A DNA stretch of 64,000 bases from assembly GCA_963803315.1 (NCBI GenBank), contig CAWDLY010000020.1, forward strand, positions 136,426 to 200,425, read 5' to 3'. The notes under the pieces were generated by a model, which was given only the letters and a program-made list of their open reading frames with translations, searched no databases and was not told the DNA's origin. Made by a program: the position numbers and the translations under genes. Below, one piece after another: positions 1 to 64,000 of this stretch. Each line of letters starts with the position of its first letter. Positions within the stretch are counted from its first letter, which is position 1. This stretch comes from an uncultured Verrucomicrobiae bacterium (GTDB lineage Bacteria > Verrucomicrobiota > Verrucomicrobiia > Chthoniobacterales > UBA10450).

Positions 1-1332
1 ACAAGCGTGGCGACAAAAGGTGCTGATGAGGTCGCGGGATCGGCTCCCATGCGACGGAGAATGAATGGCAGCATCGAACCGGAGAGCGATCCCCACAGGA
101 CCACGCCAACGAGTGAGATCCCAACCGTGAGCGCGATAAGCGGCCAATGCGGCCCGTAAATTTGGCGATGAAAATATTCCTCGCCAATGATCGACCATAG
201 CGCCGACACGCAGCGCCCCGATCACCCCGAGGAAAGATCCAAGAATCAGGCCGGCCTGAAATTCGCGCCGCATCACCTGCCACCAATCACGCAGTGTCAC
301 TTCGCCCAATGCCATCGCGCGGATCATGAGAGTGGACGCTTGCGAGCCGGAGTTGCCTCCGCTGGAAATGATCATGGGCAGAAAAACCGCGAGCACGACC
401 GCGCGCGCGATCTCATCTTCATAGTTCGCCATCGCCGTCGCAGTCAGCATTTCGCCGACGAACAGAATGATCAGCCAGCCTGCGCGCTTCTTTACCATGC
501 GCAGAAGCGGAGTGCGCATGTACGGCTCGTCCAACGCCTCCATGCCGCCGACTTTCTGAATGTCTTCGGACGCTTCTTCTTCAGCGACGTCGAACATGTC
601 GTCACTGGTTACGATGCCTACGAGAACGCCGTTGGAATCGACCACTGGCAACGCGATACGATCGTATTTACGGAACGAATTTAGCGCTTCCTCCTGCGAA
701 TCGGTCACGTTAAGCGCCACGAAAGCCTCATCGCGGATTTCGCTCACTTTCGCCGTCAACGGCTTCAGCAAAAACTCGCGGATGCGCAGGTCGTCGACGA
801 GCTTGCCGCGGTCATCTACCACGTAGATGACGTTGAGCGTCTCACTATCGCGTCCATGTTCGCGGACATGATCGAGCACTTCGCTCACCGTCCAATCGTC
901 GCGCACCGCGATGAAATCCGGCGTCATCAAACGGCCGACACTTCCTTCGGGATAACCAAGAAGCGCCTGCGCCACCCGACGCTCCTCCGGCGTCAATAAT
1001 TGAATCAGCCGTCGCGCCGCGGTACTCGGCAGTTCTTCGAGAAGCGCCGTGCGATCGTCGGGCGACATTTCGTTGAGAATGCCGGCCACCTGTTCGTGCG
1101 CCATGGCGCGGAGCAATTGCTCCTGCTCCTCGACCTCGAGATATTCGAAAACGTCCGCCGCGAGCGCGGTCGGCAAAACGCGGAAGATAATGACCCGATC
1201 GTCTTCCGGCAGATCGGTAATGATTTCGGCAAGATCGGCCGGCGGCCATTCGCGAAAAATTTCGCGCAACGCGTTGAAATCACGCGCCTCGATCAAGCTC
1301 TTGATTTCGGGTATGAGAATTTTGCCGACCAT
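1..1332 (-). CDS. mgtE: Mg2+ transporter MgtE (C-terminal end runs off window start; apparent frameshift near 205-225)
   Basis: Minus-strand ORF from ATG 1332 stays open to the window edge, which is why it is absent from the ORF track. It reads MVGKILIPEIKSLIEARDFNALREIF..., then a CBS-pair region, then FLPMIISSGGNSGSQ. The last TM part (PHWPLIALTVGISLVGVVLWGSLSGSMLPFILRRMGADPATSSAPFVATL) reads in another frame. Confidence 0.8.
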   Translation of the reverse strand, partial: MVGKILIPEIKSLIEARDFNALREIFREWPPADLAEIITDLPEDDRVIIFRVLPTALAADVFEYLEVEEQEQLLRAMAHEQVAGILNEMSPDDRTALLEELPSTAARRLIQLLTPEERRVAQALLGYPEGSVGRLMTPDFIAVRDDWTVSEVLDHVREHGRDSETLNVIYVVDDRGKLVDDLRIREFLLKPLTAKVSEIRDEAFVALNVTDSQEEALNSFRKYDRIALPVVDSNGVLVGIVTSDDMFDVAEEEASEDIQKVGGMEALDEPYMRTPLLRMVKKRAGWLIILFVGEMLTATAMANYEDEIARAVVLAVFLPMIISSGGNSGSQASTLMIRAMALGEVTLRDWWQVMRREFQAGLILGSFLGVIGALRVGAMVDHWRGIFSSPNLRAALAAYRAHGWDLTRWRGPVGIALRFDAAIHSPSHGSRSRDLISTFCRHAC

Positions 1333-1452
1333 AGCTGAATGCCTCGCGAGTCTTAACATTCGCAATTCCCAAGCGCAATCACCGCGAACGCGCGCTGCGC
1401 TTCGGATTCACGAACACGGTTCGCTTTCGTTATCGCAGCTCGTTTCGCAATC

Positions 1453-1515
1453 AAGGAGCGGCGCTTTCTAAAGCGCCGTTTAATAAAATCGGCGACTTGG
1501 AAGTCGCCGCTCCTT
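1453..1515. repeat. Palindromic repeat, family E (AAGGAGCGGCGCTTTC..AAAGCGCCG ... CGGCGACTTGGAAGTCGCCGCTCCTT)
   Basis: Two nested hairpins bounded by inverted AAGGAGCGGCG/CGCCGCTCCTT ends. A second copy lies at 58317-58372 in the opposite orientation. Confidence 0.7.
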
Positions 1516-1582
1516 GGCAGCTCGTTGGCGAACGACACCTCTGCGCTTGGAATTTTCGGGAAACCGTCCAAAATTGAACGCT

Positions 1583-3728
1583 ATGTCTGCCACTGTTAGC
1601 AGCTCGATGATTCAGCGCGAAATCAGCGACGTAGGTATCTGCATGCTCATCTTCGATCGGCCCGAATCGGGTGCGAACATTTTCGACGCTCCCACGCTGG
1701 CCGACTTGAGCGAACACGTGGCTTTTATCGAAAATGAGCCAACGCTTAAGGGCTTGATCATCACTTCCGCGAAGAAATCGATTTTCATCGCGGGCGCTGA
1801 TCTCAAGACGCTGATGCGCCAGGCTGCGCGCGGCGAAATGCGCACGTTCATTGCCGAAGGCCAGCGCGTTTTCAATCGCATCGCTGCCTTGAAAATTCCG
1901 ACATGCGCCGCCATTCACGGCGCCTGCGCCGGCGGCGGATATGAAATCACGCTCGTGTGCGACTATCGCGTCGCGTCGAACGATCCATCGACCAAAATCG
2001 GTTTGCCGGAAACGACATTGGGCCTGATTCCCGCCTGGGGCGGCGCAACTCGCTTGCCGCGATTAATCGGTGTCGAAAAATCCGCCGACGTAATTCTGAA
2101 AGGAAAATTGTATCCGGCCGCGGAAGCGAAAGAGCTTGGACTCGTCGATGAAGTTGTAGCGCGCGAGCAATTGTTGGAAGCGGCAAGAGCAAAACTCCAA
2201 ACAGGAAAAAAACGGCCCCCACCCTCCCCTCTCCCTGAGGGAGAGGCGGACGGCAAAGCCGCCGGTGAGGATCAAACACGCAGCGTGTTGCAAACCGTCG
2301 GAAATCCAGCACCAGCCCGTGCCCGCGAAATCATTTCCAAAACACTCCACGTTTCGATTGACGATTCGTTGCAAATGGAACTCGACGCCATCGTTGATCT
2401 CGGCGAAACGGAATCGACGCGCAATCTGGTCCGCAATTTCTTTCTGGCGGACAAGTATCGCAAAGGCAGCTCAAAACCTGTCGCCGAGAAAGTCGCCCAT
2501 GCCGCGGTCATCGGCGCCGGCGTAATGGGTTCGGGCATCGCGCAATGGCTCAGCTCGCGCGGCGTCTCCGTGATTTTGCGTGACGTTAATGCCGAAGCGA
2601 TCGATCGCGGGCTGGCCAACATCGACAAAACTTACGGCGATGCGGTAAAGCGCGGCTTGATGAGTGAAGACGAAAGCGAAAGAGGGCCGCGCTCGCATTG
2701 TCGCTTCCACTGCACCCGTGGAAATGCGCAACGTGCAAATTGCGATCGAAGCGGCGTCAGAAAAGCTCGAAATCAAAAAGCAAATCTTTGCCGATCTCTC
2801 CGCGAAAACTGGGCCGGCTGCGATTCTCGCGACGAATACCTCGGCGCTGCCGATAGCCGAACTGGCCGCCACCACGAAATCGCCGGAACGCGTTATCGGC
2901 ATGCATTTTTTCAATCCCGTCAGCCGGATGAAGCTGGTGGAAGTAGTCGTCGGCAAACAAACCGCGCCGGAAACAACCGATCGCGCGCTCGCATTTACGC
3001 GACAGATCGGAAAGCTGCCTGTGCTTGTGCAGGACAGTCCCGGCTTTCTCGTCAATCGGGTGCTTTTCCCTTATTTGATCGAAGCTGCGCAACTCTACGA
3101 AAACGGCGTGAGCGCGAACGAAATTGATGAGGCCCTCGTCCCATGGGGGATGCCAATGGGTCCGCTTCGGTTAATCGATGAAATCGGCGTCGATATCACG
3201 ATCGACATCGCGGACACACTCGAGAAAGCTTACGGCGAACGCGATCGCGCACCGGACATTTTGCGAAAAATGCGCGAGGACGGAATGCTCGGTCGCAAAT
3301 CTGGCAGTGGCTTCTACAAATACGAGGGCAAGAGGCAATCGCCTAACGAGACGCTCCAGCAGTGGCGCAGCACCTCCAGCGGTCATCCCGAACGAAGTGA
3401 GGGACCCGACCAAGCTGGAACTCGCGGGGTTCCTCGCTCCGCTCGGAATGACAGCGAGAGCGATCTCGCGCTTCGTCTTGTTTTTCTCATGGTGAATGAA
3501 GCGGCGCGCTGTCTCGAAGAAAAAGTTGTCGCCACGGCGGAAGATGCCGATTACGGCATGATTCTTGGAACGGGATTCGCTCCCTTTCGCGGAGGACCAC
3601 TGCGCTTTGCCGATCATTTCGGCATCGCGGAAATGGTTCGCGCGGGAGACCGGCACGGCGGAAAATTCAAACCGTGCGATCTGCTGCGGCAGCACGCGCA
3701 GAACAACACCAAATTTTATGAAGATTAA
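1583..3728 (+). pseudogene. Bifunctional enoyl-CoA hydratase / 3-hydroxyacyl-CoA dehydrogenase (FadB/FadJ-like), one frameshift
   Basis: N-terminal crotonase fold, then a Rossmann motif AVIGAGVMGSGIAQ and MHFFNPV. ORFs 1514-3127 and 2664-3728 join as ...GLMSEDE|AKEGRARIVAS with a 1-nt shift at AAA 2673-2675. The probable start is ATG 1583. Confidence 0.75.
3382..3452. repeat. Palindromic MITE-like repeat (family A) inserted in-frame in the fadB-like gene
   Basis: GTCATCCCGAACGAAGTGAGGGA ... TCCTCGCTCCGCTCGGAATGAC inverted arms. It is translated as GHPERSEGPDQAGTRGVPRSARND inside an otherwise conserved C-terminal region. Confidence 0.75.
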
Positions 3729-3884: not shown

Positions 3885-5813
3885 ATGAAATCACCACTCG
3901 AAGCGCCAGAGCGTCAGGTCGCAGAGGAAACAAGCGCGAAGCCGGAAAAACAAACGGCATCAGTCATCGACACTTCGAAAATGTCGGAGGGCAAGCGTGC
4001 CGCCCTCGAACTCGCCGAAGCATCACGCGATCCGCTCGACGATCGCGGCAGTTTCGCGAGCAATCTTTTTGTCGGTCGCTACGACTTCGACCGCATTCAC
4101 CCTTTTGCCGAACAAAGCGCGGAAGATCGCGCCGCCGGCGAAGAGTTTCTCACGAGTCTGAAGAAATATTTGCACGACAACATCGACGCCGACGAGATCG
4201 ATCGCACCGGCGAGATTCCGCAAAAGAACATCGACGATCTTTTCGCGATGGGCGCGTTCGGCGTGAAAATTCCAAAAGAATACGGCGGCCTCGGTCTATC
4301 GCAGGTCAATTATGGTCGCGCCGCGATGTTGCTCGGTAGTTGGGACGCAAATGTCACCGCTCTCATCTCCGCGCATCAATCGATCGGCGTGCCGCAGCCG
4401 CTCTTGCTTTTCGGCACGGAGGAGCAGAAGAAGAAATATCTGCCGCGTGTCGCGCGTCACGAAATCTCGGCCTTCGCCCTAACGGAATGGAATGCCGGTT
4501 CCGATCCGGCGAACATGAGTTTGCGCGCCGACCCCACGGAGGACGGCTCGGCCTTTATCCTTAACGGCGAAAAACTTTGGTGCACCAATGGCGTCAAAGC
4601 CGGCGTGCTCGTGGTCATGGCAAAGACGCCGCCGAAAATCGTCAAAGGCCGCGAGCGAAAACAGATCACAGCCTTCATCGTCGATGTTGATTCGCCCGGA
4701 CTCGAAATCACTTATCGCTGCCATTTCATGGGTTTGCGCGCGCTCTACAACGGGATCGTGAAATTCACCGATGTGCGTGTGCCGCGCGAAAACATGATCT
4801 CGAAGGAAGGCGCGGGATTGAAAGTTGCCCTAACGACTTTGAACACCGGCCGCCTGACGATTCCAGCGGCGTGCGTCGGCTTGTCGAAGCGCTTGCTCGA
4901 AATCTGCCGCAAATGGGCGGCGGAACGCGTGCAATGGGGCGTGCCGATCGGTCAGCACTACGCTATTGCCGGCAAAATCGCCGAGATGGCCGGCAGCGTT
5001 TTTGCGATGGAAGCGATGACCTTTCTGACTTCCGCGCTGGTCGACGGCAAAGCCGGCGATCTGCGCATCGAAACTGCCATGTGCAAAATGTGGGCGACGG
5101 AAACGACATGGCGCATCGCCGATGAAGCGATGCAGGTGCGCGGCGGACGCGGTTATGAGACGGCGCAGTCGCTCGCCGGTCGCGGAGAAGAACCAATCGC
5201 AGTCGAGCGGTTCCTGCGCGATTGCCGCATTAACATGATCTTCGAAGGCTCGAGCGAAATCATGCGCTTGTTTATCGCCCGTGAAGCGCTCGATCCGCAT
5301 CTCAAAGTCGGCGGCGCGATTTTCAATACGCAATTGCCGATGTCCGAACGGATCAAGGCGATGTTCAGTTCTGGAAAATTTTACGCGAGCTGGTATCCGA
5401 AACAGTTGTTCGGCGGCGGGGCTGGAGAGATCAAAGGTTTGCACGATGATCTTCGCGCGCATGTGAACTACGCCGCGCGCACGAGCCATCGTCTTGCGCG
5501 CGGATTGTTTCACGCCATGGCACGTTTCGGTCCGAAGCTCGATCGCGAACAACTGTTGCTTTCGCGTTTCTGCGGAATTGCTACGGAACTTTTCGCGATC
5601 AGCGCGACCTGTTCGTTTGCGCAATCGAAAATCAATCACGGCGAACCGGCAGATGAAATTCTTTCGCTCGCAAATTATTTCTGCCGTTCGGCGAGATTAC
5701 GCATCGATCATCATTTTGCCGGAACGAGCGCGAATGCCGATCGCCGCGGCTATGATTTGACGCAGGAATTGCTCGCAGGAAAGCACGAGTGGCTGCAGAA
5801 GGGAATTGTCTGA
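3885..5813 (+). CDS. Long acyl-CoA dehydrogenase family protein
   Basis: Intact 642-aa ORF. It shows acyl-CoA dehydrogenase N/M/C-domain features (GLGLSQVNYGRA, WCTNG, IFEGSSEIM) and follows the fadB-like gene, giving a beta-oxidation context. Confidence 0.85.
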   Translation: MKSPLEAPERQVAEETSAKPEKQTASVIDTSKMSEGKRAALELAEASRDPLDDRGSFASNLFVGRYDFDRIHPFAEQSAEDRAAGEEFLTSLKKYLHDNIDADEIDRTGEIPQKNIDDLFAMGAFGVKIPKEYGGLGLSQVNYGRAAMLLGSWDANVTALISAHQSIGVPQPLLLFGTEEQKKKYLPRVARHEISAFALTEWNAGSDPANMSLRADPTEDGSAFILNGEKLWCTNGVKAGVLVVMAKTPPKIVKGRERKQITAFIVDVDSPGLEITYRCHFMGLRALYNGIVKFTDVRVPRENMISKEGAGLKVALTTLNTGRLTIPAACVGLSKRLLEICRKWAAERVQWGVPIGQHYAIAGKIAEMAGSVFAMEAMTFLTSALVDGKAGDLRIETAMCKMWATETTWRIADEAMQVRGGRGYETAQSLAGRGEEPIAVERFLRDCRINMIFEGSSEIMRLFIAREALDPHLKVGGAIFNTQLPMSERIKAMFSSGKFYASWYPKQLFGGGAGEIKGLHDDLRAHVNYAARTSHRLARGLFHAMARFGPKLDREQLLLSRFCGIATELFAISATCSFAQSKINHGEPADEILSLANYFCRSARLRIDHHFAGTSANADRRGYDLTQELLAGKHEWLQKGIV

Positions 5814-13412: not shown

Positions 13413-13429
13413 ATTTTGGTTTTCCATTT

Positions 13430-14587: not shown

Positions 14588-14697
14588 AACTGCGCTCCGC
14601 ACAGAGAAACAACTGGCAATTCACCAACACTACCCTGCGCAGACATTGATTTTTTTTCACGCTTGCCTTCCCGATTGCCTCGCAGCACCCTAACGAA

Positions 14698-15471: not shown

Positions 15472-18295
15472 AAGTCCTAACCGTGAAAACGCTCGCTCCC
15501 CGCATCGCGCTTTGTTCGACATGCGGCAGGATGTTGAATGAGAAAGGCGAGTGCATGTCCTGCCTTGTTCGGTTGGGGTTTGATCAGCCGTTACCGGAAT
15601 TGTCTTCCGCAGTCTTCGGCGATTTCGAAATCGTGCGGCGCGAAGATGGCTTATTTTGGGAACTCGGACGCGGCGCGATGGGTGTGACTTATCGCGCCCA
15701 GGACAAGGTGTTGAATCGCACCGTCGCGTTAAAAGTGATCGACCCACCGGCAACAGAAGGCGGCGGGCAGGCGGTGCGGGATCGTTTCTTGCGCGAGGCT
15801 CGCGCCGCGGCGGCCTTTCGCCATCCAAATGTGGCAGGTGTGTTTCACTTCGGCGCCTCGAGCGAAGGCGATCGTTGCTACTATGCCATGGAGCTGGTCG
15901 AGGGCGAAACTCTCGAAGCACTCGTTAGGCGTGATGGTCCGTTAGAAGTCAAAGTCGCGCTCGAAATGACAGTTCAAGTCACGCGCGCGTTAATCGCAGC
16001 GGCAGCGCATGGACTCATCCATCGCGACCTTAAGCCGGGTAACATCATGTTGATCCGAAGCGACGCTTCAGAGCTTGAGGTTAAAGTGATCGATTTCGGT
16101 TTAGCCAAAGCGATTGCGGATGGTGGAAAAGAAATGGACTTGACCAAGGGCGGCTTCATCGGCACGCCTGCTTTCGCCAGCCCCGAGCAATTCAGCGGCG
16201 CAGCCGCCGATGCGCGCTCCGATATCTACTCGTTAGGCGTGACGCTTTGGTATGCGCTCACGGGCGAGGTGCCGTATCAGGGAAAAACTATTGAAGAGAT
16301 TCGCCATCGTCAGAGCGATCTCCCACTGCCAGTACAAAATTTGGTCGCGCGCAAAATCCCGACTCCCGTTATTCAGCTACTGCGTCGAATTCTCGCCGTG
16401 GATCCAACCCAACGACCAGCATCGGCTCGGGATTTTATGGAAGCCCTGGATTCGTGCCGCTCACGTTTGGGGCTTATTCCTTTGCCAAGATCGAAAGTGC
16501 GACAAGCCGTCCGCATGGACTTGCAGCCCTTGCCGCTGCGGTGGCGGTCGGCGCCGTAGGTTTTTTTGCTTTCCGGCCATCGCAGCAGAAACCAACGCCC
16601 GCTATAGCAGCCACCGCGCAAGTAGCACTGCCGCCGGTAGTCATACCTAGGAAGTCGATCGCGGTTCTGCCATTCGAAAATCTTAGCGCGGAGAAGGAGA
16701 ACGCTTTCTTCGCGGATGGAGTGCAAGACGACATCCTTACGGCGTTGTCGAAAATCGCCGACCTCAAAGTCATCAGCCGGACCTCTGTGATCAGTTATCG
16801 CGCAGGGGCCGCGCGCAACTTGCGCGCGATCGCTCAAGAATTGGGTGTCGCCAATATTTTGGAAGGCAGTGTTCGCCGCGCCGGAGGCAAAGTCCGGGTA
16901 ACAACCCAACTGATCAATGCGCAGACCGACGCTCATTTGTGGGCCGATACTTACGATCGGAGTTTGGAAGATGTCTTCGCGATTCAAAGCGACATCGCAT
17001 TACAAGTCGCGGCGCAACTGCAGGCGAAGCTCTCGCCCAGCATCAAGTCCGCCATTGAGGAGCGTCCCACCAGCGATTCGATCGCATATGAGTTTTACAC
17101 GCGGGCTAAATTACTCCGGCAACAACCGATGACGGCGCCAGCTGAACAGTTGGAGGCGATAGCATTGCTTGACCAGGCGGTGAGGCGAGACCCGCAGTTT
17201 CACCTTGCCTATTGCGCATTGGTGTCGTTGCACACGCTGTAATACGCGTACTTTGAACATGTGCCGGCACGACGCGCTTTGGCGGAGCGCGCTCTCGAGG
17301 CGGCAGTCCGTTTGCGGCCGGACGCGGCCGAAACTCATCTTGCTCGAGCGGATTACTATTATCGCTGCGACTTTAATTACGACAAAGCCAGGGCAGAACT
17401 CGCGCTGGCCCAGCGGGAACTTTCTGGCGAACCGCGCTTTTTCATCACCGCAGCCCGGATGGACCGATGTCAAGGCCGCTGGCAGGACGAACCTCGCAAT
17501 TGGGAGAAAGCGCTCGAACTCGATCCTCGGAACATGCAGAGCTATAAGCAGCTCTACGAATCTTACCGGGAGGTGCGGCGCTATCCAGAAGCCGCCGCGG
17601 CTCTGCAGCGCGCAGCGGCCATCGATCCGGCCGCGCCGTGGCCGCGGATATTACGCGGCGACCTCGAACTTCAGTGGCGGGCCAACACCAAGCCTTTGCA
17701 TGAGATTTTCGACGAGTTGATAAAGAAAGATCCAGAGAATATTTGGACCGAAGTGTGGTTCGACCTTGCCCTCTGCGAGCGTGATCCAGATGCGGCTGCC
17801 AGAGCCGCGGCTGAACTGGAGTGCGACCTACGATGGTGTGTGGCTCCGCGAGGGGTGGTTTAAGGGTTTAGCCGCGCGCATCCGCGGCGACGAGACGGCG
17901 GCAAGAATGGCGTTCACCGCGGCTCGTGTGGCAGCCGAAAAGGAGGTAACCGAGCAGCCAGATTACGGTCCTCCATTGTGCGCGCTCGGCCTTATCGACG
18001 CCGCTCTCGGACGGAAAGACGAGCGATCCGGGAAGGTCGGCGCGCCGCAGGAACTTCTCCCGGTAACCAAAAATGCTATCGCCGGCGCAATATATCCAAG
18101 ACATTCCTCGCCCTGATCTACGTCTTCTGCGGGGAGAAGGACCTTGCGATTGAACAACTGCAAACTTCGATGAAATCCTACAACGCCATGTTGTCCTACG
18201 GGGAACTCCGCCTGCATCCGTTCTGGGATCCGTTGCGCGGCGATCCGCGTTTTGAGAAACTCGTCGCCAGCCTTGCGCCCAAGCCGGGTGAGTAA
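15468..18295 (+). pseudogene. Membrane Ser/Thr protein kinase with periplasmic TPR domain (copy 1), at least 4 disruptions
   Basis: Order of parts: Cys4-like N-terminus (CSTCG..CMSC), Hanks kinase (HRDLKPGNIML, DFGLAK, GTPAFASPEQ), a TM segment, then KSIAVLPFENLS... and TPRs. The gene is split over ORFs 15468-16559, 16454-17242, 17261-17863, 17766-18116 and 17978-18295. Confidence 0.75.
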
Positions 18296-21448: not shown

Positions 21449-21505
21449 ACAAATTGCGATTTTTCTGCGCTTGCCTTTGCGATTGCTTCGCACCAACCTA
21501 ACGAA

Positions 21506-35732: not shown

Positions 35733-35859
35733 GGAAAGTTGCTAATCTCCCTTCCGCAAAAAGCAAGCGCCTAACGAAAAGAGGTTGCCTCAGCGTAACC
35801 CCGGTTCCGCGGGAAAATCCGCTTGGCTTTCACGCATCTTCGCGCCAGCTTAGCGGCGC

Positions 35860-47338: not shown

Positions 47339-49276
47339 TTAGCGCTTCGGCAGAAGGCGCATCTTCGTTTCCTCTGGCAAAGCGGATGCGCTAATCCAGT
47401 TCGTGGCCGCATTGGCATCCATTTTTAGCCAGTTGCCGAGAAGAGATTCGAGCCGGCTGTTGCGCATTCTTTCATTGCTAATCGTTTGCGCCCATTGCAC
47501 CGCCGCCGCTGGATCAGACCCCATAATTCGCCCGGTATAAGCATTGACGGCGGCATCCCGGGAATCGCCCGCCGGCAAGGTGCCGAGCCACGAGCCAGCC
47601 GCATACGGATCGTTTTGCGCCCATCGATTCATCACGGTTTCAAAAGCGCGTTGCCGCGTTGGGCCTTCGGGAAAAGAGGCGGCCCATTTGCTTGCCGCTT
47701 GCGGATCGTCTCCGGCCCATTGCCAGCCGATCGAGCCCGCCGCACTAGCTTGCGAATCGCCTGCGGGCAATCGCGCTACCAGCCGTGTCGCTTCCGGCAA
47801 ATCGGTCTCCGCGACCGAAGCAATAATGCCGGGCAAAACAGAATCGCGCGTGGCACTCGGCAAACTGCTCACCCACGCGATGGCCGCCTGGGCATCGACT
47901 CGGGCCCATTGCCGCGAAATATTTTCGAGCAAATTATTGCGTCCAGCCAGGTCACTTGAACGCAAAGCAAAATTGGCCGCCGCTTGGGGATCGGCTTGCG
48001 TCCATTGCGAAACAATATTGGTGAGCGCATTTTGCTTGCCCGGACCGTCGGGAAGTTTTTGCGCCCAGGCGATGGCGTTTTGCACATCGCTGCTGGCTAA
48101 TTGCATCGCGATGGCGGTGACGGCTTTCTCCTGCGCTTTCCCCGCGGGCATGCTCGCGACGTACTCGGCGGCCGCCGCCGGTTCCGATTGCACCCAGGTG
48201 GCGAGCACATTGCTCAAGGCATTTTGCTGTGCCTCGTTCGCCGGTAACCTCTGCGTCCAGGCGAGCGCAGCGCGGGGATCAGTTGTGGCCCATTGCCGGG
48301 CAATGTTGGCGACCGCTTGATCCCGCGCGGAACCGGAAGGCAATGTGTCGATCATGGAAGCGGCTTTTTGCGGATCTTTGTTCCCCCAATTGGAAAAAAT
48401 ATTCTGCAGCGCGTTATTCCGACCCTGCCCAGCGGGCAAAGTATTCGCCCAGGCATAAGCCGCCTCCGGATCCTGCTGGGCCCAATTGGAAGCGACCACT
48501 TGCAACGCTGTGTCTCGACTCGATCCGGCTGGCAGTTGTGCGGCGCGTTGGGCGGCCGCAAGTGGATCGTCCGAGGTCCAGCGGGTGAAAATCGGCCAAT
48601 ACAAACCCTGGCGCTTCCGGCCCTCAGGCAGGTTTTGCAAAAAAGCGAGTGCCGCTTGTGGATCTTTCTCCGCCAATGCGGAAACGATTGTTTGCATGGC
48701 CTGATCGCGCTGCGGACCGGGCGGAAGCTGCTCCACCCACGCCATGGCCGCAGTGGTATCGTGCTCGGCCCAACCGGCCACCGCACTCGTTAGGGCCCAA
48801 TTGTGAAATGATCCGGCCGGCAAACCCTGCGCGTAAACGACGGCGGCTTTGGGATCGAGTTCCGCCCAACGGGCGATCACCATCGGCACAACCATGCTTT
48901 TTTCGCGGTCGCGCAGCGTTTCTACGAAAGCGAGAACTTCACGAACATTTTGTTGATCGACCAAATCGATCACTCGATTCAATGCGGCATAGGTGCGTTG
49001 TCGGCCGGAATGCAGTAAGGCCGCTTTGATTTTCGAAATGATCGCGGCGGCGCTTGTGCCGGATGGAACCGCCTCATCAGCATCGCGCTTTGATTCCGCA
49101 ATAGCGACGCTCTCTGGAGGAAGAGAGGGCGCAGGGGAAATGGTGGAAGCCGCTAATGAGTTAACGGATTTTTGCGACGCAGCATTTCTGACCACCGGAA
49201 ATGCATAACGGCCAACTGCGATTCCGATCATGAGCGCGACAAACGCAATGACGGCTGAAGGAACAAAGCGCTTCAC
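47339..49276 (-). CDS. Membrane-anchored protein built of ~15 tandem ~36-aa helical repeats
   Basis: 645 aa with an N-terminal TM segment. The recurring unit is LPxGxxRxxAxxxIxxxWxxxDPxAAxxW (for example LPAGQGRNNALQNIFSNWGNKDPQKAASMIDT). Confidence 0.7.
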   Translation of the reverse strand: MKRFVPSAVIAFVALMIGIAVGRYAFPVVRNAASQKSVNSLAASTISPAPSLPPESVAIAESKRDADEAVPSGTSAAAIISKIKAALLHSGRQRTYAALNRVIDLVDQQNVREVLAFVETLRDREKSMVVPMVIARWAELDPKAAVVYAQGLPAGSFHNWALTSAVAGWAEHDTTAAMAWVEQLPPGPQRDQAMQTIVSALAEKDPQAALAFLQNLPEGRKRQGLYWPIFTRWTSDDPLAAAQRAAQLPAGSSRDTALQVVASNWAQQDPEAAYAWANTLPAGQGRNNALQNIFSNWGNKDPQKAASMIDTLPSGSARDQAVANIARQWATTDPRAALAWTQRLPANEAQQNALSNVLATWVQSEPAAAAEYVASMPAGKAQEKAVTAIAMQLASSDVQNAIAWAQKLPDGPGKQNALTNIVSQWTQADPQAAANFALRSSDLAGRNNLLENISRQWARVDAQAAIAWVSSLPSATRDSVLPGIIASVAETDLPEATRLVARLPAGDSQASAAGSIGWQWAGDDPQAASKWAASFPEGPTRQRAFETVMNRWAQNDPYAAGSWLGTLPAGDSRDAAVNAYTGRIMGSDPAAAVQWAQTISNERMRNSRLESLLGNWLKMDANAATNWISASALPEETKMRLLPKR

Positions 49277-53405: not shown

Positions 53406-53513
53406 ACTGTCGCTGCCGGAGCAAGCATGTTTGCCTAACGAGTAAAGTAGAATCGGTTTCCTGCCGCTTTTCTTTTCTTTGCCACGCGACTGGAAGTCGC
53501 GTCGACATGCACC

Positions 53514-55520
53514 TTAGATGATTTTTTGCGGACATTTCGGCAATGCATTCAGAAACGCGCGTCCGTATGATTTCGTCACGATGCGATTATCTAAAATCAC
53601 CACGATGCCATGATCGCTCTTCGTGCGAATCAACCGTCCGACTCCCTGCCGAAATTTTAGCACCGCTTCCGGCAAAGAATATTCTGTGAACGGATCGCCT
53701 CCGCGCTCCTGCACAAGTTCCAGTTTCGCCTCGATGAGCGGATGGTCGGGAACGGCAAACGGTAGTCGCGTGATGATGACATTGGAAAGCGCCTCGCCGG
53801 GAACATCCACGCCCATCCAGAAACTGTCCGTCCCAAAAAGAACGCTGCGCGGTGTGTTCTTGAACTGTTCAAGCAACCGCCCGCGCGGCGCACCCTGTCC
53901 CTGCACCAGCAGGTTCATTCTGCTTTTCGCAAAAAACGTTTCCATCTCTCCCGCGAGCAATTGCATTCCGCGATAGCTCGTAAAGAGAACAAAAGCGCGG
54001 CCCTCCGTCTGCTCGACAAAATGCGCGACCCATTTCGCGAGCGCTTCGTTGTAACCGGCGTCGCGCGGATCGGGCATTTTCTTTACGACGAACAATTCCA
54101 TCTGCGCGGTGAAATCGAACGGACTTCCCAGTTGCACCGGCTCGGCTTCGCCCGCGCCAATGCGCTCGCGGAAATAAGCGAGATCAGGACGGCCGACAGC
54201 GAGCGTTGCGCTCGTCATGATGCAGGAACAATCATCCCGAAAAAGCATGCGCCGGAGAACGGGCGCGATATCGATCGGCGCGGCATTAAGCGAAAGGAAC
54301 TGCGCCGTTTTTCCGGTGCGCTCGACCCAATAAACGTGGCCCTCCGCGCTCTGCTCCAGGAATGTGACGATGCCAAGCCGCGCATCGCGAACGCGGCGGC
54401 CGAGCTCATTTAGCTCGGCTTTGAGAAATTCATCGTCGTTGCGCCTGACCACCTCGGTGATGCGCGCCTGCAAGCCCATCAAGCGCGCGCTGATCGTATC
54501 GGGCACAAAATCCGGCTCGCGCACGCGCACTTCGCGGCCTTTGCGAAAATCGCAACGCTCCTCGACCGCTTTGAAAAATCTGTCGAGATCGTCCACCAGC
54601 TCCGCCGCCAAAGTCACGCCCGCCGCATCGCGTGTAACGGTAAAGAGACCTTTGCGCGTGCGCGCGTTGTAAAGTCGCTGCACCGTGCTCCGCAGCCCAT
54701 ATTGCGAAACGCCAATCCCGATCTGGCGCGAAGCGACCTGCTCGACCGTATGGGCTTCATCGAAAATAATGAAGTCGTTAGGGAAAAGATAACCGCTTTC
54801 GCGTTCGGCCATTTCCTCGACACCGCCCAGAAGCATGAAGAGCAAGGTGTGATTGATGACGATCACGTCGGCTGCGAGCAATCGTTTGCGGGCTTGCTGG
54901 AAAAAACAGTTCCCAAGCAGGCCGCATGTTTTCGTCGTGCAGATATGCGCTTCGCTACAGATCTGCGTCCACACTTTCGCGTCCGGCTCGATCGACAAAT
55001 CGCTCAGCGAACCATCCTTTGTCGTGCGCGCCCAATCGGCGATGCGTTCGAGTTCCACCTTCTCCGACGTCGTGAAAAGCTCGGTCGCCTGCTGTAATGC
55101 GCGCTCCAGACGCCGCGGACAAAGATAATTTTGCCGGCCTTTCAATAACGCCGCTTCAAATTCGATCGGCAGAATTTTTTTTACGATCGGAATGTCCTTG
55201 TTCAGCAACTGTTCCTGAAGACTGATGGTGTAGGTCGAAATGATGGCCTTTTTCGATTGCTCGATGGCGTAGAGAACCGCCGGCACGAGGTAGGCAATCG
55301 ATTTGCCAACGCCAGTGCCGGCTTCGATGACCAGATGACGCTCTTCTTCCAGAGCGCGGGCCACCGCCCTGGCCATCTCCTGTTGCTCGCGGCGATACTC
55401 GAAATTCTTTGCTTTGGAGAGCAAACCATCGGAGGCGAAGATCGCGCAAACGCGTTCCACGAATTCGGTTCCGAGGTTGTTTTTGAGCGCGATCATAGCG
55501 GCCGAAGCACCAAGCACCAA
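53514..55520 (-). CDS. dinG: DinG-family ATP-dependent DNA helicase
   Basis: 668 aa with EAGTGVGKSIAYLVPA (Walker A), FDEAHT (DEAH box), and the C-terminal helicase motif GVGRLIR. The start may be Met 55496, because the first codons lie in a repeat. Confidence 0.85.
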   Translation of the reverse strand: MVLGASAAMIALKNNLGTEFVERVCAIFASDGLLSKAKNFEYRREQQEMARAVARALEEERHLVIEAGTGVGKSIAYLVPAVLYAIEQSKKAIISTYTISLQEQLLNKDIPIVKKILPIEFEAALLKGRQNYLCPRRLERALQQATELFTTSEKVELERIADWARTTKDGSLSDLSIEPDAKVWTQICSEAHICTTKTCGLLGNCFFQQARKRLLAADVIVINHTLLFMLLGGVEEMAERESGYLFPNDFIIFDEAHTVEQVASRQIGIGVSQYGLRSTVQRLYNARTRKGLFTVTRDAAGVTLAAELVDDLDRFFKAVEERCDFRKGREVRVREPDFVPDTISARLMGLQARITEVVRRNDDEFLKAELNELGRRVRDARLGIVTFLEQSAEGHVYWVERTGKTAQFLSLNAAPIDIAPVLRRMLFRDDCSCIMTSATLAVGRPDLAYFRERIGAGEAEPVQLGSPFDFTAQMELFVVKKMPDPRDAGYNEALAKWVAHFVEQTEGRAFVLFTSYRGMQLLAGEMETFFAKSRMNLLVQGQGAPRGRLLEQFKNTPRSVLFGTDSFWMGVDVPGEALSNVIITRLPFAVPDHPLIEAKLELVQERGGDPFTEYSLPEAVLKFRQGVGRLIRTKSDHGIVVILDNRIVTKSYGRAFLNALPKCPQKII

Positions 55521-55683: not shown

Positions 55684-56832
55684 ATGCGCCTGCTCGACCG
55701 CTACGTACTCCGCAATTTCCTGCAGGCGTACTTCTATTGTATTGCCGCGTTTTTCTCCATCTGGCTCATCTTCGATATCAGCGACAAGATCTCTACCTTT
55801 CTCGACGAGCGTCTTCCGCTCCACCGCGTCCTGCATTATTACCTCACCCAAATCCCGCAGATTTTCGTTATCCTTCTGCCGGTCTCGTTTCTTCTCGGTC
55901 TGCTTTTTTGCCTCGGCCGCATGTCGCGTGCGAACGAAATCGTCTCGATGCTGACCGCGGGCATCAGTCTGCCGCGCGTCATTTTGCCGCTGATCTGCGT
56001 TGGAGTAATCACTTCGGTGGCCATGGCCGCGTTGAATTATTCTCTCGCGCCGCATGCAGATATCGCGCAGCGCGCTTTCGACGAAGAAACACACGCCCGT
56101 CGGGAATACAAAGGAGTGATTGGCCAGATCTTTCGTAATCGGGCCGACAATCGCACCTGGTTTATTCAGTCATTTGTTCCCGGAGAAAATGAATTTCACA
56201 GCGTCCAGGTTCTTCAGCAGGATCAGCATGACGACATCACGCGCGACTATCTCGCGAATAAGGCCATTTATCATCCGGAAGACAAAGCCTGGGAACTGCA
56301 GGGAGTTAAAATCGTCGATTACGACGCTGCTGGAAATATCAAGCGTTCGCGCATTCTGCGATCTTTCGTCATCAAAGATTGGAGTGAGACGCCGTATCGA
56401 TTGGTGAGCGCGAATATGCGCGCGGATTCACTCAGCGTTCCGGAGCTGCGCGAATATTTGCATTTCAATTCCGACTTTCCGCCCGTTTTGCTGGCGCCTT
56501 TCGCCACGCATTTGCAATATCGCCTCGCCCTGCCTTGGAGTTGTCTGGTCGTTGTTTTCATTGCCGCGCCACTTGGCGTCGGCTTTTCGCGGCGCGGGAT
56601 TCTTTCCAGCGTGGCGACTGCGATTCTTCTCGTGTTCGCGATGAATTTTCTTACTCACTTCTTTCTCGCGCTCGGTGAGGGGTATCGCATCTCCGCATGG
56701 GTCGCCGGTTGGACACCGAACATCGCATTCGCCATCATCGGTGCTTATTTATTGTATTTGCGTGCGGGCAATCGTGAAGCGCCGGGACTCCGCTTCGCCT
56801 TTGCCCGCGCCGCTTCTACCCCTAACGAATGA
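55684..56832 (+). CDS. LptF/LptG family permease (YjgP/YjgQ)
   Basis: MRLLDRYVLRNFLQAYFYCIAAFFSIWLIFD..., 6 TM segments with a periplasmic beta-jellyroll insert. ATG 55684 is preferred over the ORF-track start. Confidence 0.8.
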   Translation: MRLLDRYVLRNFLQAYFYCIAAFFSIWLIFDISDKISTFLDERLPLHRVLHYYLTQIPQIFVILLPVSFLLGLLFCLGRMSRANEIVSMLTAGISLPRVILPLICVGVITSVAMAALNYSLAPHADIAQRAFDEETHARREYKGVIGQIFRNRADNRTWFIQSFVPGENEFHSVQVLQQDQHDDITRDYLANKAIYHPEDKAWELQGVKIVDYDAAGNIKRSRILRSFVIKDWSETPYRLVSANMRADSLSVPELREYLHFNSDFPPVLLAPFATHLQYRLALPWSCLVVVFIAAPLGVGFSRRGILSSVATAILLVFAMNFLTHFFLALGEGYRISAWVAGWTPNIAFAIIGAYLLYLRAGNREAPGLRFAFARAASTPNE

Positions 56833-57332
56833 ATCCTTTAGCAAACGAATGGCCGATCAAACATCGCGCGGATGCTTGCGCCGTGACGCAACGGCCGTTC
56901 GTTTCGGGCGAGCAATTTTACACCCTGCTCTTTCGTGAAGGCGACGGTTTCCGGCGCGAAGATTTGAGCGAAGAAGCATGGGCTAATCGCAACGAAAACA
57001 TCCGCCCATTTTCATTCTGGAAAAGCCGCTACGAACCGCCGCCCGCCACGCCGCCGGAACCGATCGCAAAAGAAAGCGCGGAAGATTTTTTGCGCCGGTT
57101 GCTCGGGGAGAAAAATCCGGAACGCGCAAATGCCTGCTACGTGCTGGCCGTGATGCTCGAGCGCAAGCGCGTTCTCAAGCAGATAAAAAGCGAAGCGGCG
57201 GACGATGGTCGCGTCTTGATTTACGAACACAACAAGACAGGCGATGTTTTCATCGTGCCCGACCCGCAGTTGCGACTCGATGAAATCGAGAAAGTGCAGA
57301 CTGAAGTGGGCGCACTGCTGCGAAACGCCTAA
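56829..57332 (+). CDS. Conserved hypothetical protein
   Basis: 167 aa with ATGA overlap to the lptF/G-like gene. No family was recognised. Confidence 0.55.
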   Translation: MNPLANEWPIKHRADACAVTQRPFVSGEQFYTLLFREGDGFRREDLSEEAWANRNENIRPFSFWKSRYEPPPATPPEPIAKESAEDFLRRLLGEKNPERANACYVLAVMLERKRVLKQIKSEAADDGRVLIYEHNKTGDVFIVPDPQLRLDEIEKVQTEVGALLRNA

Positions 57333-57345
57333 CGAATCATTGCCA

Positions 57346-60063: not shown

Positions 60064-60075
60064 TATCTCAACCTC

Positions 60076-61382: not shown

Positions 61383-61470
61383 GTCATTCCAAGCGCAGTC
61401 GAGGAATCTCTCATTGGTATTACCCGGCGGAATAAACAGTAAGAGATGTCTCGACTTTGCTCGACATGAC
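61383..61470. repeat. Palindromic MITE-like repeat (family B, inverse orientation)
   Basis: GTCATTCCAAGCGCAGTCGAGGAATCTCTC ... GAGATGTCTCGACTTTGCTCGACATGAC. Confidence 0.8.
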
Positions 61471-61481
61471 AGAACCCAGTT

Positions 61482-63023
61482 TCATCCGAAAGAACGCAAG
61501 CGCGGCCATAACTCACTCCATTTCACACGCAAACCGCGGCACAAAAAAATGTTCGGATTATCACTCGTTTCTTCGTTTTTGATCTGCCACGGATTTGGGG
61601 TGCGGCCAACGATCTCGACCGAATCAAAAAGCTTCTCGAGCCGCTCGCGCTTGCCGCCGAGGACGATCAATGATTCCGGCGGCGGAGTTCCGGGACCACG
61701 AGCCCAGTAGGAATTAATCCCGCTGATTGCAGATGGAAGTCCGTAAGCGGGACCGTACAGATCAATCGCCCCGGCTTCGCCGTAGTTTGCACAATAAATA
61801 CCCACGCGCGCGCGTTGGGATGCAGGCAGCGTTGCGTAAATCCGCGCCACTTCGCGCACGAGTTCCGGCCAGCCGATTTCTTCTACGAGATCGCCATTCT
61901 GTCTGATAGCGAAGCGAAAGAGCGGCGAATCAATTTTGCCCAGAGGCAGAATGGCAAAAGCGACAGCGCTGCCGATCAGCAACGCCAGTGTAATCGCTGC
62001 GTAGGCCGCGATCCTCCACGACGAGCGCACGCGCGCCAGAATCCGCTCCAGAGCCACCGCACCAGCCGCGATAAGCATCGGATAAACCGGTCCCATATAA
62101 TAACCGCGACCATGAGCGAGAAGAAGAATCGCAAATGGCACGAGCGTCATCCACGCGAGAACTCGATCGCTCCTATCGCGTGGTGCAATCAACAACGAAG
62201 ACAAACCCAGCAGCCAGAGCGGGACGGTGATGATGTTTGTTGCCTCGGAAAATTGATCGGCAACAAATCCGGATGTCCGACCGATACGCACATCGCGTTC
62301 GTGGATATGGCGAAGAAAATCCAGCGTGATGAAATGGTGGTGCCATTGCCACAGAAAATTTGGCAGCGCGATGAGGAGAGAGAGGGCTGCGCCAATCCAA
62401 AGCCATTTGCTCGTTAGGTATGACCGGAGCGGTGTTGCCAGGACTCCGCAAAGCAAACCGACGACGAAGAAAGCAGCCGTGTATTTTGTCTCGATCGCGA
62501 GACCGATGACTATCCCGACGGCCAGCCACCAGCGCGGATCTCGCGATCGAATAAGCCGCACCATGAAATAGGCAAGCAAGACGAACCAGAGATAATCAAA
62601 AGACACATATTGGAACAATGCGCTGGCACCGATTGAGATCGGCGCGATCGCCGTCGCCCCAGCGGCGATGAACATTGCGGCGCGTTTGCCGCCGAGTTCA
62701 CGCGCGATCAATCCGGCAACAACAATGGCGACACTTTGCGCGAGCGCCGCTAAAAATCGGAAGCCGGTGAGCGACGGCCCGAACAAGATCAGCTCGATTC
62801 GTCCAATGAGCGGCGTAAGCGGCGGATAAGCGACGTAGCCCCAATCCAGATGGCGCGCGTCTGAAAGCGTGGCCAGTTCGTCGCGATGAAAACCGTAGCG
62901 GGTATTGACCAGCAGGTGAAATACGAGTTTGAGCGCGGCGAACGCAATGAGAATGAGAAGATCAACATCCCTGCGCTGCCACGAACTGCCGGAAGTCGCT
63001 TTCACGCAGCCGCACGTTCCCAA
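61482..63023 (-). CDS. Glycosyltransferase family 39 (ArnT/PMT-like) membrane protein
   Basis: 513 aa with many TM segments and an N-terminal DE...YPPL loop (FHRDELATLSDARHLDWGYVAYPPLTP). Confidence 0.75.
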   Translation of the reverse strand: MGTCGCVKATSGSSWQRRDVDLLILIAFAALKLVFHLLVNTRYGFHRDELATLSDARHLDWGYVAYPPLTPLIGRIELILFGPSLTGFRFLAALAQSVAIVVAGLIARELGGKRAAMFIAAGATAIAPISIGASALFQYVSFDYLWFVLLAYFMVRLIRSRDPRWWLAVGIVIGLAIETKYTAAFFVVGLLCGVLATPLRSYLTSKWLWIGAALSLLIALPNFLWQWHHHFITLDFLRHIHERDVRIGRTSGFVADQFSEATNIITVPLWLLGLSSLLIAPRDRSDRVLAWMTLVPFAILLLAHGRGYYMGPVYPMLIAAGAVALERILARVRSSWRIAAYAAITLALLIGSAVAFAILPLGKIDSPLFRFAIRQNGDLVEEIGWPELVREVARIYATLPASQRARVGIYCANYGEAGAIDLYGPAYGLPSAISGINSYWARGPGTPPPESLIVLGGKRERLEKLFDSVEIVGRTPNPWQIKNEETSDNPNIFLCRGLRVKWSELWPRLRSFG

Positions 63024-64000
63024 CTATCCGCCGGCGTAGTCTGGATATTTTTCGTGCAGTTGTTTCGCGACACGATCCGCTTCGTCTTTGTGGCCCGCTT
63101 TTTCGTAGGCGAACGCGGCCTTTTCCAGAGCACGAGGCGTTATCGCCGGATCGTCGTAAAGAAGCGCAACACCCATGAACGCTTTACTCGCTTCATCGAA
63201 ACGCTGGCGCTCAAGCTCCACTTCGCCGGCCAGCAAACGGGCTTCGGCATTGACGCGACCTTCCGGTTGCAGCGTCATGATTTCCTCCGCGATTTTTTGC
63301 GCGTCGTCCGGTTTGTGTGCGCCGATCTTGGCGGCGCCCAGCGCGAGAAGGGTTTTTGCTTTGCCGGCCGGATCCGTCGCGGTCTGCAAATACTTTTCAT
63401 ACGCGGTTTCCGCCGCCGGAAAATTTTTCAACTTCGTTTCCGCGTCGCCGAGGTAAAACCAGAAATCCGGTTTAACCGCGCCGAGATTATCGCTTTGACT
63501 TAGCGCCGTCAGATATTTCTCGGCCACCGCGTAATTCTTTTCGTTGTAATATTCTATGCCGAGCCATTCCAGAATTTCCGCAGGCACCCTGGTCTGTGGA
63601 TTTGTCGACATGAACGCGTCGACTTCATTCGTTAGGGCGCTGCGATCCTTCAAATAAAAGTAGGCGGAGATAATTCGCAGAGTCGCGAGACTAAAATATT
63701 GCTCTTTGTTCAGAGTGCGCGCGGCATTCAATTCCGTGATCGCTGTTTTGTAATCCTTGTCGTCAAACGCCGCTTTGCCAATGTAGTAATGCGCCTGCGC
63801 CGCGACCGAGCTTTTTGGGAACTCCCTTAACAATTGCCGAAACGCATCGGACATCCCTTTGTTATTTTCCTCCTGTCCGAGAATAAGCGCTTTTTGTTGC
63901 AGAGCGGCTTCGCGTTCGTGCGCCTTGGGATAGCTAGCCAAAAGCGCATTCAGGTCCTGTAGGGCAGCGCTGTAATTCTTGCTGTCCTGGTACGAGAGAG
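63024..64000 (-). CDS. TPR-repeat protein (N-terminus beyond window end)
   Basis: The reading frame stays open upstream of the ORF-track start through 64000 (..LSYQDSKNYSAALQDLNALLASYPKAHE..). TPR-like A/Y/L periodicity throughout. Confidence 0.65.
   Translation of the reverse strand, partial: LSYQDSKNYSAALQDLNALLASYPKAHEREAALQQKALILGQEENNKGMSDAFRQLLREFPKSSVAAQAHYYIGKAAFDDKDYKTAITELNAARTLNKEQYFSLATLRIISAYFYLKDRSALTNEVDAFMSTNPQTRVPAEILEWLGIEYYNEKNYAVAEKYLTALSQSDNLGAVKPDFWFYLGDAETKLKNFPAAETAYEKYLQTATDPAGKAKTLLALGAAKIGAHKPDDAQKIAEEIMTLQPEGRVNAEARLLAGEVELERQRFDEASKAFMGVALLYDDPAITPRALEKAAFAYEKAGHKDEADRVAKQLHEKYPDYAGG

Follow-up and report, generated by a model that had tools for sequence, protein, structure and literature searches.

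A hyper-abundant, non-polar DNA word in a lineage of uncultured soil Chthoniobacterales, possibly of the uptake-signal type

The closest described counterparts of the word reported here are the DNA uptake sequences (DUS) of Neisseriaceae (GCCGTCTGAA and its dialects, read by the minor pilin ComP), the uptake signal sequences (USS) of Pasteurellaceae (9-mer core AAGTGCGGT in Haemophilus influenzae) and HIP1 (GCGATCGC), a word of cyanobacteria that, to our knowledge, is still unexplained after 30 years. Sequence-specific DNA uptake is known from two proteobacterial families only, and this was still so in a 2025 survey, in which the frame usage of DUS and USS is biased, stop-encoding frames are avoided inside genes and about half of the uptake sequences in Neisseriaceae and Pasteurellaceae lie in terminators (bioRxiv 10.1101/2025.10.24.684340). 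Enrichment of DUS and USS falls 82-92-fold with one mismatch (PMC1939737), and uptake-sequence dialects follow phylogeny and act as interspecies transformation barriers (PMC3630211). HIP1 is 15-300-fold over-represented and was inferred to be under selection from its positional conservation, its function being still unknown (PMC5861425). Here we describe a word found in a 64-kb stretch of DNA from an uncultured Verrucomicrobiae bacterium (contig CAWDLY010000020.1, positions 136,426 to 200,425; 64,000 nt, hereafter the window). We interpret this word, GCCTAACGA followed by G or A, with the core CCTAACGA, as one that selection or drive maintains throughout the genomes of a genus-level lineage of uncultured soil Chthoniobacterales. 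Full-text searches of the literature turned up neither the word, nor uptake sequences in Verrucomicrobia, nor a methylation motif with CCTAAC.

The 9-mer GCCTAACGA occurs 24 times in the window, compared with a mean of 0.39 (maximum 4) in dinucleotide shuffles and 0.17 expected under a third-order Markov background estimated with the word masked, a 143-fold excess. The 8-mer core CCTAACGA is present 32 times (17 on the plus and 15 on the minus strand; 0.52 expected under the same background, 61-fold), and the 7-mer CCTAACG 34 times (19 plus, 15 minus) with 4.0 expected. Half of the 9-mers (12 of 24) extend to the 10-mer GCCTAACGAG, for which the Markov expectation is 0.04. The original prediction, made from the letters alone, had given 24 starts of the 9-mer, at least 34 copies of the 7-mer in a ratio of about 19 to 15 and an extension of about half of the 9-mers, and we reproduced its starts and counts exactly. 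In an unbiased scan of the whole window the word and its sub-words rank first among enriched k-mers at k = 7, 8, 9 and 10. Copies are found in each 8-kb bin, at an overall density of 0.5 per kb (32 per 64 kb), or about one per 2 kb over both strands.

The core is invariant in 32 of the 34 copies of CCTAACG, the remaining two reading CCTAACGG. It is preceded by G in about 72-75% of copies and followed by A or G and then, weakly, by T or A. From 46 non-redundant sites in the window and three close relatives (loci L161, L162 and L163) we obtained the consensus t-t-n-G-CCTAACGA-R-W, beyond which the sequence is random, with an information content that falls to about 0 on either side of positions -1 to +10 of the word. 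On direct reading the word is asymmetric, being different from its own reverse complement and containing no 4-6 bp palindrome. Over-representation of the 9-mer goes from 143-fold to 2-fold to 0.8-fold at 0, 1 and 2 mismatches, a first drop of about 70-fold, which is close to that of DUS and USS.

These values (60-fold enrichment for the 8-mer, 140-fold for the 9-mer) are comparable to those of DUS, USS and HIP1 and greatly exceed those of Chi. Like USS, the word is short and asymmetric, has a density of about 0.5-1 per kb, lies on both strands and mostly in genes, is read in several frames with a frame and orientation bias set by coding, is lost steeply with a single mismatch, and is common to related species, with a second type in other genera. 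It differs from USS in belonging to another phylum, in its unrelated sequence and in having no AT-rich flanking segments (only a weak T at -4/-3 and W at +10). With DUS it shares a length of 10-12 nt, an invariant core with a variable edge, dialect-like variation (CCTAACGA and CCTAACGG) and a position conserved between species, as well as, by our estimate, thousands of copies per genome: if 0.5-0.7 copies per kb hold over a genome of 3-4 Mb, there would be about 1,500-2,500.

Coding context, strand and duplicated copies

The excess is not a product of the encoded proteins. Within called genes we observed 22 copies of the 8-mer, and synonymous-codon shuffles within each gene, which keep the protein sequence and the per-gene codon usage, gave 1.1 +/- 1.0 copies (maximum 6 in 1000 shuffles); the excess thus survives a codon-aware background. 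Since the dinucleotide, Markov and synonymous-codon nulls are all exceeded 20-140-fold, we regard it as a real feature. The word lies in genes on both strands and in spacers. All four stop-free frames are occupied, and the two stop-containing frames are occupied at gene ends only (7159 and 57330), a restriction like that published for DUS and USS. It had been predicted that the word is read in several frames with rare codons and overlaps or abuts stop codons; both points were borne out, the codons at its sites including CTA (3% of Leu), TTA (6% of Leu) and AGG (4% of Arg), and the stops being TAG 7159-7161 of a serpin gene, TAA 57330-57332 and, directly adjoining, TGA 56830. The synonymous shuffle and the use of several frames rule out a peptide or codon-usage origin, and the presence of the word on both gene strands and in all four stop-free frames rules out an RNA or peptide motif. 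Searches of the window with Rfam and ARAGORN found one tRNA-Gly only; an RNA family, tRNA or promoter was rejected as the source of the word on the basis of this single tRNA, the lack of a -35/-10 partner and the lack of a terminator association. Overall these results indicate that the word is a DNA-level feature and not a peptide or codon effect.

It is also non-polar. Word orientation switches about 15 times along the 64 kb. With broken genes and the three close relatives included, about 72% of genic copies are in sense orientation, and the synonymous-shuffle null already gives 76%, so the sense excess reflects coding constraint. A plus-strand excess in the three close relatives (34 of 42 copies) hinted at a polar or RNA-level word and is explained by the gene orientation there together with the sense preference that the null reproduces. 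The predicted absence of polarity of the Chi type or of the FtsK-orienting polar sequence (KOPS) type is therefore upheld over the 64 kb, with 17 plus and 15 minus copies of the 8-mer and a sense excess equal to the null. Chi and the octamers of the KOPS and architecture-imparting sequence (AIMS) type resemble the word as asymmetric 8-mers of lineage-specific sequence, but they are strongly co-oriented with replication and few-fold enriched, whereas the present word is strand-balanced and 60-140-fold enriched. The same evidence bears on a Chi-like self marker, in which the word would alter the action of RecBCD/AddAB, a defence nuclease or another nuclease or helicase, and word-bearing DNA would as a result be spared or recombined. 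In its favour, asymmetry and a length of 8 bases are typical of Chi, other bacteria too have such words in lineage-specific form, and even an island of L161 that is probably mobile contains copies (see below), as expected if any resident DNA gains from the word. Known Chi enrichment is, however, one to two orders of magnitude lower, and strand polarity is absent both in the 64 kb and in pooled loci once coding constraints are accounted for, which leaves this explanation very improbable.

Some of the copies are related by duplication. The stretches 14.6-21.4 kb and 21.4-27.7 kb are diverged tandem copies with 75-97% identity, both containing the word five times. With one set discounted, there remain 27 independent 8-mers and 19 independent 9-mers, in line with the roughly 20 copies that had been predicted to remain after a discount of 4-5. 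All five sites are intact in both duplicates, with 40-nt flanks that are only about 70% identical in ungapped comparison. The duplication (14600-27730, unit about 6.3 kb) contains one Ser/Thr kinase-TPR gene and one TonB-dependent receptor gene per copy, and both copies are split into several open reading frames (ORFs).

A duplication artefact would account for only 5 of the 32 copies, and the excess is not confined to the duplicated segments, the outcome that the original prediction had named as fatal to it: every 8-kb bin and the relatives carry the word. More broadly, an artefact could lie in composition or codon usage, a repeated peptide, a dispersed repeat, the duplication or an assembly error. 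Five copies do stem from the duplication, and several broken reading frames could point to errors of long-read assembly. The nulls exceeded 20-140-fold, the random flanks, the use of several frames and both strands, the 27 independent sites that remain, and the enrichment of the same word in independent contigs from ENA, JGI and GTDB-genome records (L009, L135, L139 and L161-L163) refute this explanation.

The 34 sites containing CCTAACG are as follows. Genes in the window are our own crude calls combined with Pfam, and several are broken, so that sense and antisense counts hold to within about 2 sites.

3342..3349, plus: CCTAACGA after G (that is, GCCTAACGA); fadB-like gene (ECH/3HCDH), sense, frame broken in the window, CCT AAC GAG = P-N-E; intact in L161, L162 and L163
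4478..4485, plus: variant CCTAACGG; acyl-CoA dehydrogenase gene 3885-5813, sense
4829..4836, plus: CCTAACGA after C; acyl-CoA dehydrogenase gene, sense, xxC CTA ACG; kept in L161, L162 and L163
6930..6937, plus: GCCTAACGAG; serpin gene, sense, CCT AAC GAG; kept in L161, L162 and L163
7155..7162, minus: GCCTAACGAG; TAG 7159-7161 is the serpin stop codon; kept in L163
8153..8160, plus: GCCTAACGA; antisense in DUF488 gene (7774-8316, minus); kept in L163
8489..8496, plus: GCCTAACGA; peroxiredoxin gene 8376-8915, sense, CTA ACG; kept in L163
10257..10264, plus: GCCTAACGAG; antisense in M28 peptidase gene (9987-10988, minus); kept in L163
14101..14108, plus: variant CCTAACGG; unannotated stretch
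14689..14696, plus: CCTAACGA after C; 5' end of ORF 14698-15471; duplication copy 1
15922..15929, minus: GCCTAACGAG; antisense in Ser/Thr kinase gene (15468-16559, plus); duplication copy 1
16230..16237, minus: GCCTAACGAG; antisense in the same Ser/Thr kinase gene; duplication copy 1
18330..18337, minus: GCCTAACGA; intergenic between convergent kinase-TPR and TonB-dependent receptor genes, no terminator-like hairpin; duplication copy 1
21151..21158, plus: GCCTAACGA; antisense in the plug domain of TonB-dependent receptor gene (20325-21191, minus); duplication copy 1
21497..21504, plus: CCTAACGA after A; duplication copy 2, counterpart of 14689
22087..22094, minus: GCCTAACGAG; antisense in kinase gene copy 2 (21702-22841); counterpart of 15922
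22395..22402, minus: GCCTAACGAG; antisense in kinase gene copy 2; counterpart of 16230
24546..24553, minus: GCCTAACGA; intergenic, 84 nt past the end of the TPR gene (24462); counterpart of 18330, flanks strongly diverged, word intact
27489..27496, plus: GCCTAACGA; antisense in TonB-dependent receptor copy 2; counterpart of 21151
29048..29055, minus: GCCTAACGAG; intergenic between PaaX-like regulator gene (28083-28922, plus) and ABC-2 permease gene (29481-30605, minus)
31927..31934, minus: GCCTAACGA; ABC ATPase gene (31004-31972, minus), sense
32683..32690, minus: GCCTAACGA; HlyD-family gene (32187-33071, minus), sense
33675..33682, plus: GCCTAACGA; glyoxalase-family gene 33312-33884, sense; relatives read CCGAACGG, CCAAACGA and similar
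34629..34636, minus: GCCTAACGAG; maf gene (34441-35037, minus), sense
35770..35777, plus: GCCTAACGA; intergenic between DUF4412 gene (minus) and tRNA-Gly (35860-35930)
39222..39229, plus: GCCTAACGA; Wzz/tyrosine-kinase gene 37561-39723, sense
43627..43634, plus: GCCTAACGAG; antisense in dnaE (42871-46209, minus), CTC GTT AGG with the rare Arg codon AGG
48787..48794, minus: CCTAACGAG after C; ORF 47339-49276 (minus), sense
53434..53441, plus: GCCTAACGAG; intergenic between convergent NHL-repeat (ends 53405) and DinG-like helicase (ends 53514) genes, no terminator-like hairpin
54775..54782, minus: CCTAACGA after C; DinG-like helicase gene, sense, TTC CCT AAC GAC = F-P-N-D
56821..56828, plus: CCTAACGA after C; last codons of LptF/G permease gene, right before TGA 56830-56832
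57328..57335, plus: GCCTAACGA; TAA 57330-57332 is the stop of ORF 56829-57332; also in the 5' part of the dihydrouridine synthase ORF
62411..62418, minus: CCTAACGAG after A; PMT_2 glycosyltransferase gene (61482-63023, minus), sense
63629..63636, minus: CCTAACGA after C; TPR protein gene (63024-63941, minus), sense

Conservation among relatives and a second word

The three close relatives were reached through their acyl-CoA dehydrogenase (96-97% amino acid identity). Their loci, of about 22 kb each, are about 82% identical to the window at the nucleotide level (81% for L163 in the site alignments). They hold 13, 15 and 12 copies of CCTAACGA per 22 kb (0.55-0.7 per kb), again as the top-ranked word. 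Copies extend to regions that are absent from the window (macB, padR, aminotransferase, polB), and the word is therefore a property of the genomes of this lineage and not of the window. Where window sites could be aligned, 7 of 7 are intact in L163, compared with 22.8% of all 8-nt windows in the same alignments (P = 3.3e-5), and L161 and L162 each keep 3 of 3. Conservation in relatives, which the original prediction had left to be distinguished from that of the encoded residues, extends to the word itself.

The differences seen in relatives at orthologous positions are single substitutions, for the most part synonymous, rather than indels. In dnaE, 12 of 87 orthologues share the word and the rest read CCGAACGA, CCTGACGA, CCGGACAA and similar synonymous variants; the window has CTC GTT AGG where relatives have GTT CGG or GTC AGG. 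Likewise F-P-N-D of the DinG-like helicase is written TTC CCT AAC GAC in the window and CCA AAC GAC or CCG AAT GAT in orthologues. The word shares its high copy number with repetitive extragenic palindromes (REP), miniature inverted-repeat transposable elements (MITE) and Rickettsia palindromic element (RPE)-type repeats, and such elements (CTGGGGAGCGCACGC...) are present in the window and its relatives. They are, however, 30-160 nt long, have conserved flanks and inverted termini and arise by insertion, whereas the flanks of the word are random and its copies originate in point substitutions. The random flanks and the substitution rather than indel differences rule out a REP or MITE element as its source.

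The sites are conserved in position far more often than the background, which is also the ground on which HIP1 was inferred to be selected, and this brings in a HIP1-like explanation, in which the word would be the binding site of an abundant chromosomal protein (nucleoid, segregation or other housekeeping) under purifying selection, with no link to uptake. HIP1 is likewise an 8-mer that lies in genes and spacers, is conserved in position and has variant words in some lineages. A lack of terminator association and a copy-to-copy spacing slightly, though not significantly, more even than random (coefficient of variation 0.81, P = 0.13) would both fit, as would the coexistence of two different words in one genome (see below). 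On the other side, HIP1 is palindromic, contains the targets of two orphan methyltransferases and is tied to methyltransferases, whereas the present word is asymmetric and has no palindromic sub-site. Known nucleoid and segregation sites (matS, the SlmA and Noc sites, parS) are palindromes with a 10-100 times lower density, and lineages with about 80% identity in DnaE would hardly be expected to have swapped a housekeeping site for an unrelated word. We therefore consider a HIP1-like role unlikely, although it is the main alternative to an uptake signal.

Beyond the close relatives we examined 80 soil-metagenome loci with DnaE 76-87% identical to that of the window and 14 genome loci; the metagenome loci were picked partly via peptides of a repeat element inserted in dnaE, so this sampling of relatives may be biased. 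The loci L135 and L139 show clear enrichment of CCTAACG, with 9 copies in some 14 kb apiece (P ~1e-7), and L135 favours the variant CCTAACGG. The 7-mer is also enriched in L009, with 5 copies in 3 kb. Enrichment is moderate in L003, L164, L165 and L166, and many other loci are at background. On a crude tree, the only one available (unweighted pair group method with arithmetic mean on pairwise DnaE identity), the distribution looks patchy. No enrichment of the word was found in 66 control loci from other phyla. The 6-phosphogluconate dehydrogenase of the window is 77-82% identical to that of soil metagenome-assembled genomes labelled Chthoniobacterales, Spartobacteria or Verrucomicrobia, and the sources of acyl-CoA dehydrogenase homologues are labelled Chthoniobacterales.

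Many related Chthoniobacterales lineages carry a second, unrelated isolated word, AAGATCGACA(A/T), or AAGATCGACAW, the loci including L003, L086, L096, L101, L130 and L164. In L003 (1-21482) there are 26 copies in 21 kb (P ~1e-54), the density reaching 1.2 per kb, and many other loci have 8-18 copies each. This word too has random flanks and occurs on both strands and in several frames; GATCGACA pooled over 80 dnaE-oriented loci is split 149/140 by strand, without polarity. In the window AAGATCGACAW is only at expectation.

Such variation between lineages could also suggest a by-product of modification and repair, in which a non-palindromic methyltransferase or other modification system would act on part of the word and an accompanying short-patch mismatch repair would turn near-matches into it, raising its count with no function of its own. 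Restriction-modification specificities vary in a similarly patchy way, the second word contains GATC and TCGA, and a link between a hyper-abundant word and an orphan methyltransferase has been proposed for HIP1 (PMC4390886). Several observations speak against this. Retention of sites across 18% divergence argues against continual neutral replenishment (by the logic of PMC5861425), no single one-mismatch variant stands out as depleted, albeit at low power, and the 64-kb window has no methyltransferase or Vsr-like gene. In size, too, the word fits poorly. The usual methyltransferase targets are shorter than 8-10 fully specified asymmetric bases, and repair-driven effects such as that of Vsr on CCWGG are about 2-fold, not 60-140-fold. 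A modification by-product is thus distinctly improbable.

An uptake-type signal

Since DUS and USS are a known class with nearly all of the observed features, we take an uptake-type signal as the best explanation and infer both a link to uptake and the existence of a receptor. Specifically, molecular drive may have spread the GCCTAACGAR-type word as an uptake or self-recognition signal of the DUS/USS type, a reading that we hold tentatively and to which we give a probability of about 0.4. By analogy with the known systems, a component of the uptake machinery would bind double-stranded DNA bearing the word, and DNA of the same lineage would thereby be preferentially taken up and recombined. Alleles that create the word would then be over-transmitted, which constitutes molecular drive. 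Copies would build up where the protein tolerates them: in four of the six frames as codons that are synonymous or tolerated, in the other two, where the word itself encodes a stop, as stop codons, and in spacers. Existing copies would be retained.

The resemblance to uptake sequences, already proposed from the window sequence, stands for density, length, spread over both strands and DNA-level constraint. It is strengthened by the positional conservation over about 18% divergence, the origin by point changes and the variant or different word in related lineages, and fails for terminators and inverted pairs and for the two unrelated words in some relatives. Circumstantial support comes from 54-55% GC soil Verrucomicrobia of a grassland meadow, in which ComEC homologues and signs of homologous recombination have been reported (PMC7305173, main text and Table S3).

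Several observations weigh against an uptake signal. Unlike in USS, variants of the 8-mer core with a single mismatch show no enrichment (25 observed, 28 expected). Unlike DUS, which often form terminators as inverted pairs, the copies in the window include no close inverted pair (minimum spacing 226 nt), and none of the intergenic copies overlaps a terminator-like hairpin. The 64-kb window contains no competence, pilus, receptor, restriction, methyltransferase or Vsr-like gene. Any other DNA-level function under selection would explain the conserved positions equally well. Known uptake dialects are close variants of one word, those of DUS sharing the core CTG and following the family phylogeny, whereas here the alternative word is unrelated, the distribution looks patchy on the crude DnaE tree, and both words occur together in L003, L164, L130 and L140, again unlike USS. 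Finally, a probable mobile insertion in L161 holds three copies of CCTAACGA, two of them in a short repeated segment, which counts against an uptake tag because foreign DNA would be expected to lack it.

The L161 insertion (13330-17270, about 3.9 kb relative to L162) lies between the serpin and macB genes and encodes a NotI-family restriction endonuclease and a PhD-type antitoxin.

A wider form of the uptake reading is possible but open to greater doubt: that an abundant family of uncultured soil Verrucomicrobia uses uptake self-recognition words, the first such outside Proteobacteria, and that close lineages have switched between or combined GCCTAACGAR and AAGATCGACAW. If so, the words would act as barriers or channels for gene flow among co-occurring soil populations and would imply a new, rapidly evolving DNA receptor. 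If the word is not related to uptake, it would still be a strongly selected genomic signal with no known reader.

What is new here is the occurrence of a hyper-abundant word of the DUS/USS/HIP1 type in a further phylum; its sequence is unrelated to theirs, it has no association with terminators, and sister lineages carry a second word that is unrelated to it. As a third independent case it would offer a fresh system in which to study what makes bacteria place thousands of copies of a single word in their genomes, and the asymmetry of the word, its positional conservation and the occurrence of unrelated words in sister lineages of very abundant soil bacteria are useful traits for this purpose. 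A comparison of genomes with the first word, with the second and with neither permits phylogenetic profiling for the responsible receptor or enzyme, and the words could serve as lineage markers and as tools for DNA delivery into uncultured organisms.

Other features of the window and its relatives

The genes of the window are ordinary chromosomal ones for housekeeping or transport: mgtE, fatty-acid oxidation, serpin, peroxiredoxin, ABC-2 transporter, Ser/Thr kinase and TonB-dependent receptor genes, as well as wzz/wza, gnd, dnaE, a dinG-like helicase gene, lptF/G, dus and lexA. Frame changes or in-frame stops were seen in the fadB-like gene (1514-3728), the serpin gene (5900-7161) and the kinase-TPR and TonB-dependent receptor genes (interrupted stretches 15468-17863, 19158-21191 and 24687-27364). 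The serpin and fadB-like genes are intact in L162 and L163. The interrupted genes are either pseudogenes or carry indel errors of long-read assembly. At 59415-61355, lexA is followed by a weakly RecA-like (ImuA-like) ORF and then by another ORF, and this region may be an SOS mutagenesis cassette.

A 16-bp palindrome, TGTTCCGTACGGAACA, has five perfect copies (0.03 expected), at 13664-13679, 27855-27870, 28087-28102, 28941-28956 and 29263-29278. It clusters at the gene of the PaaX-like regulator (28083-28922) and the neighbouring ABC-2 transporter genes and is therefore probably the operator of this regulator.

In the relatives, other enriched words (CTGGGGAGC, GCAGGCTG, CGTCCGGC, GGGATCCC, AATGACGAA, GAGGGACCT and TGGGAGA repeats) were set aside as parts of palindromic or tandem repeat elements, which mimic enriched words in k-mer scans. 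The REP-like palindromic families include CTGGGGAGC-GCAGGCTG..., pairs of GGGATCCC, and TCCCGAGCGNAGCGAGGGACCTCGCA, and the tandem repeats are heptamers, (TGGGAGA)n; loci with such repeats are L156 (750-3250), L150 (200-1140), L098 (2779-2903), L007 (2400-14720) and L011 (400-6060). The dnaE gene of the window (42871-46209, minus) itself contains two elements of about 155 nt, 92% identical and in frame, at 43307-43462 and 45665-45820, with the inverted termini CTGGGGAGCGCACGC...GCGTGCGCTCCCCAG. They add about 52 amino acids each at DnaE residues ~131-181 and ~917-967 and leave an open reading frame of 1112 amino acids. Related elements occur in 19 of 101 relatives' loci searched, inside dnaE in the loci checked against dnaE coordinates, and they resemble the in-frame palindromic elements of Rickettsia.

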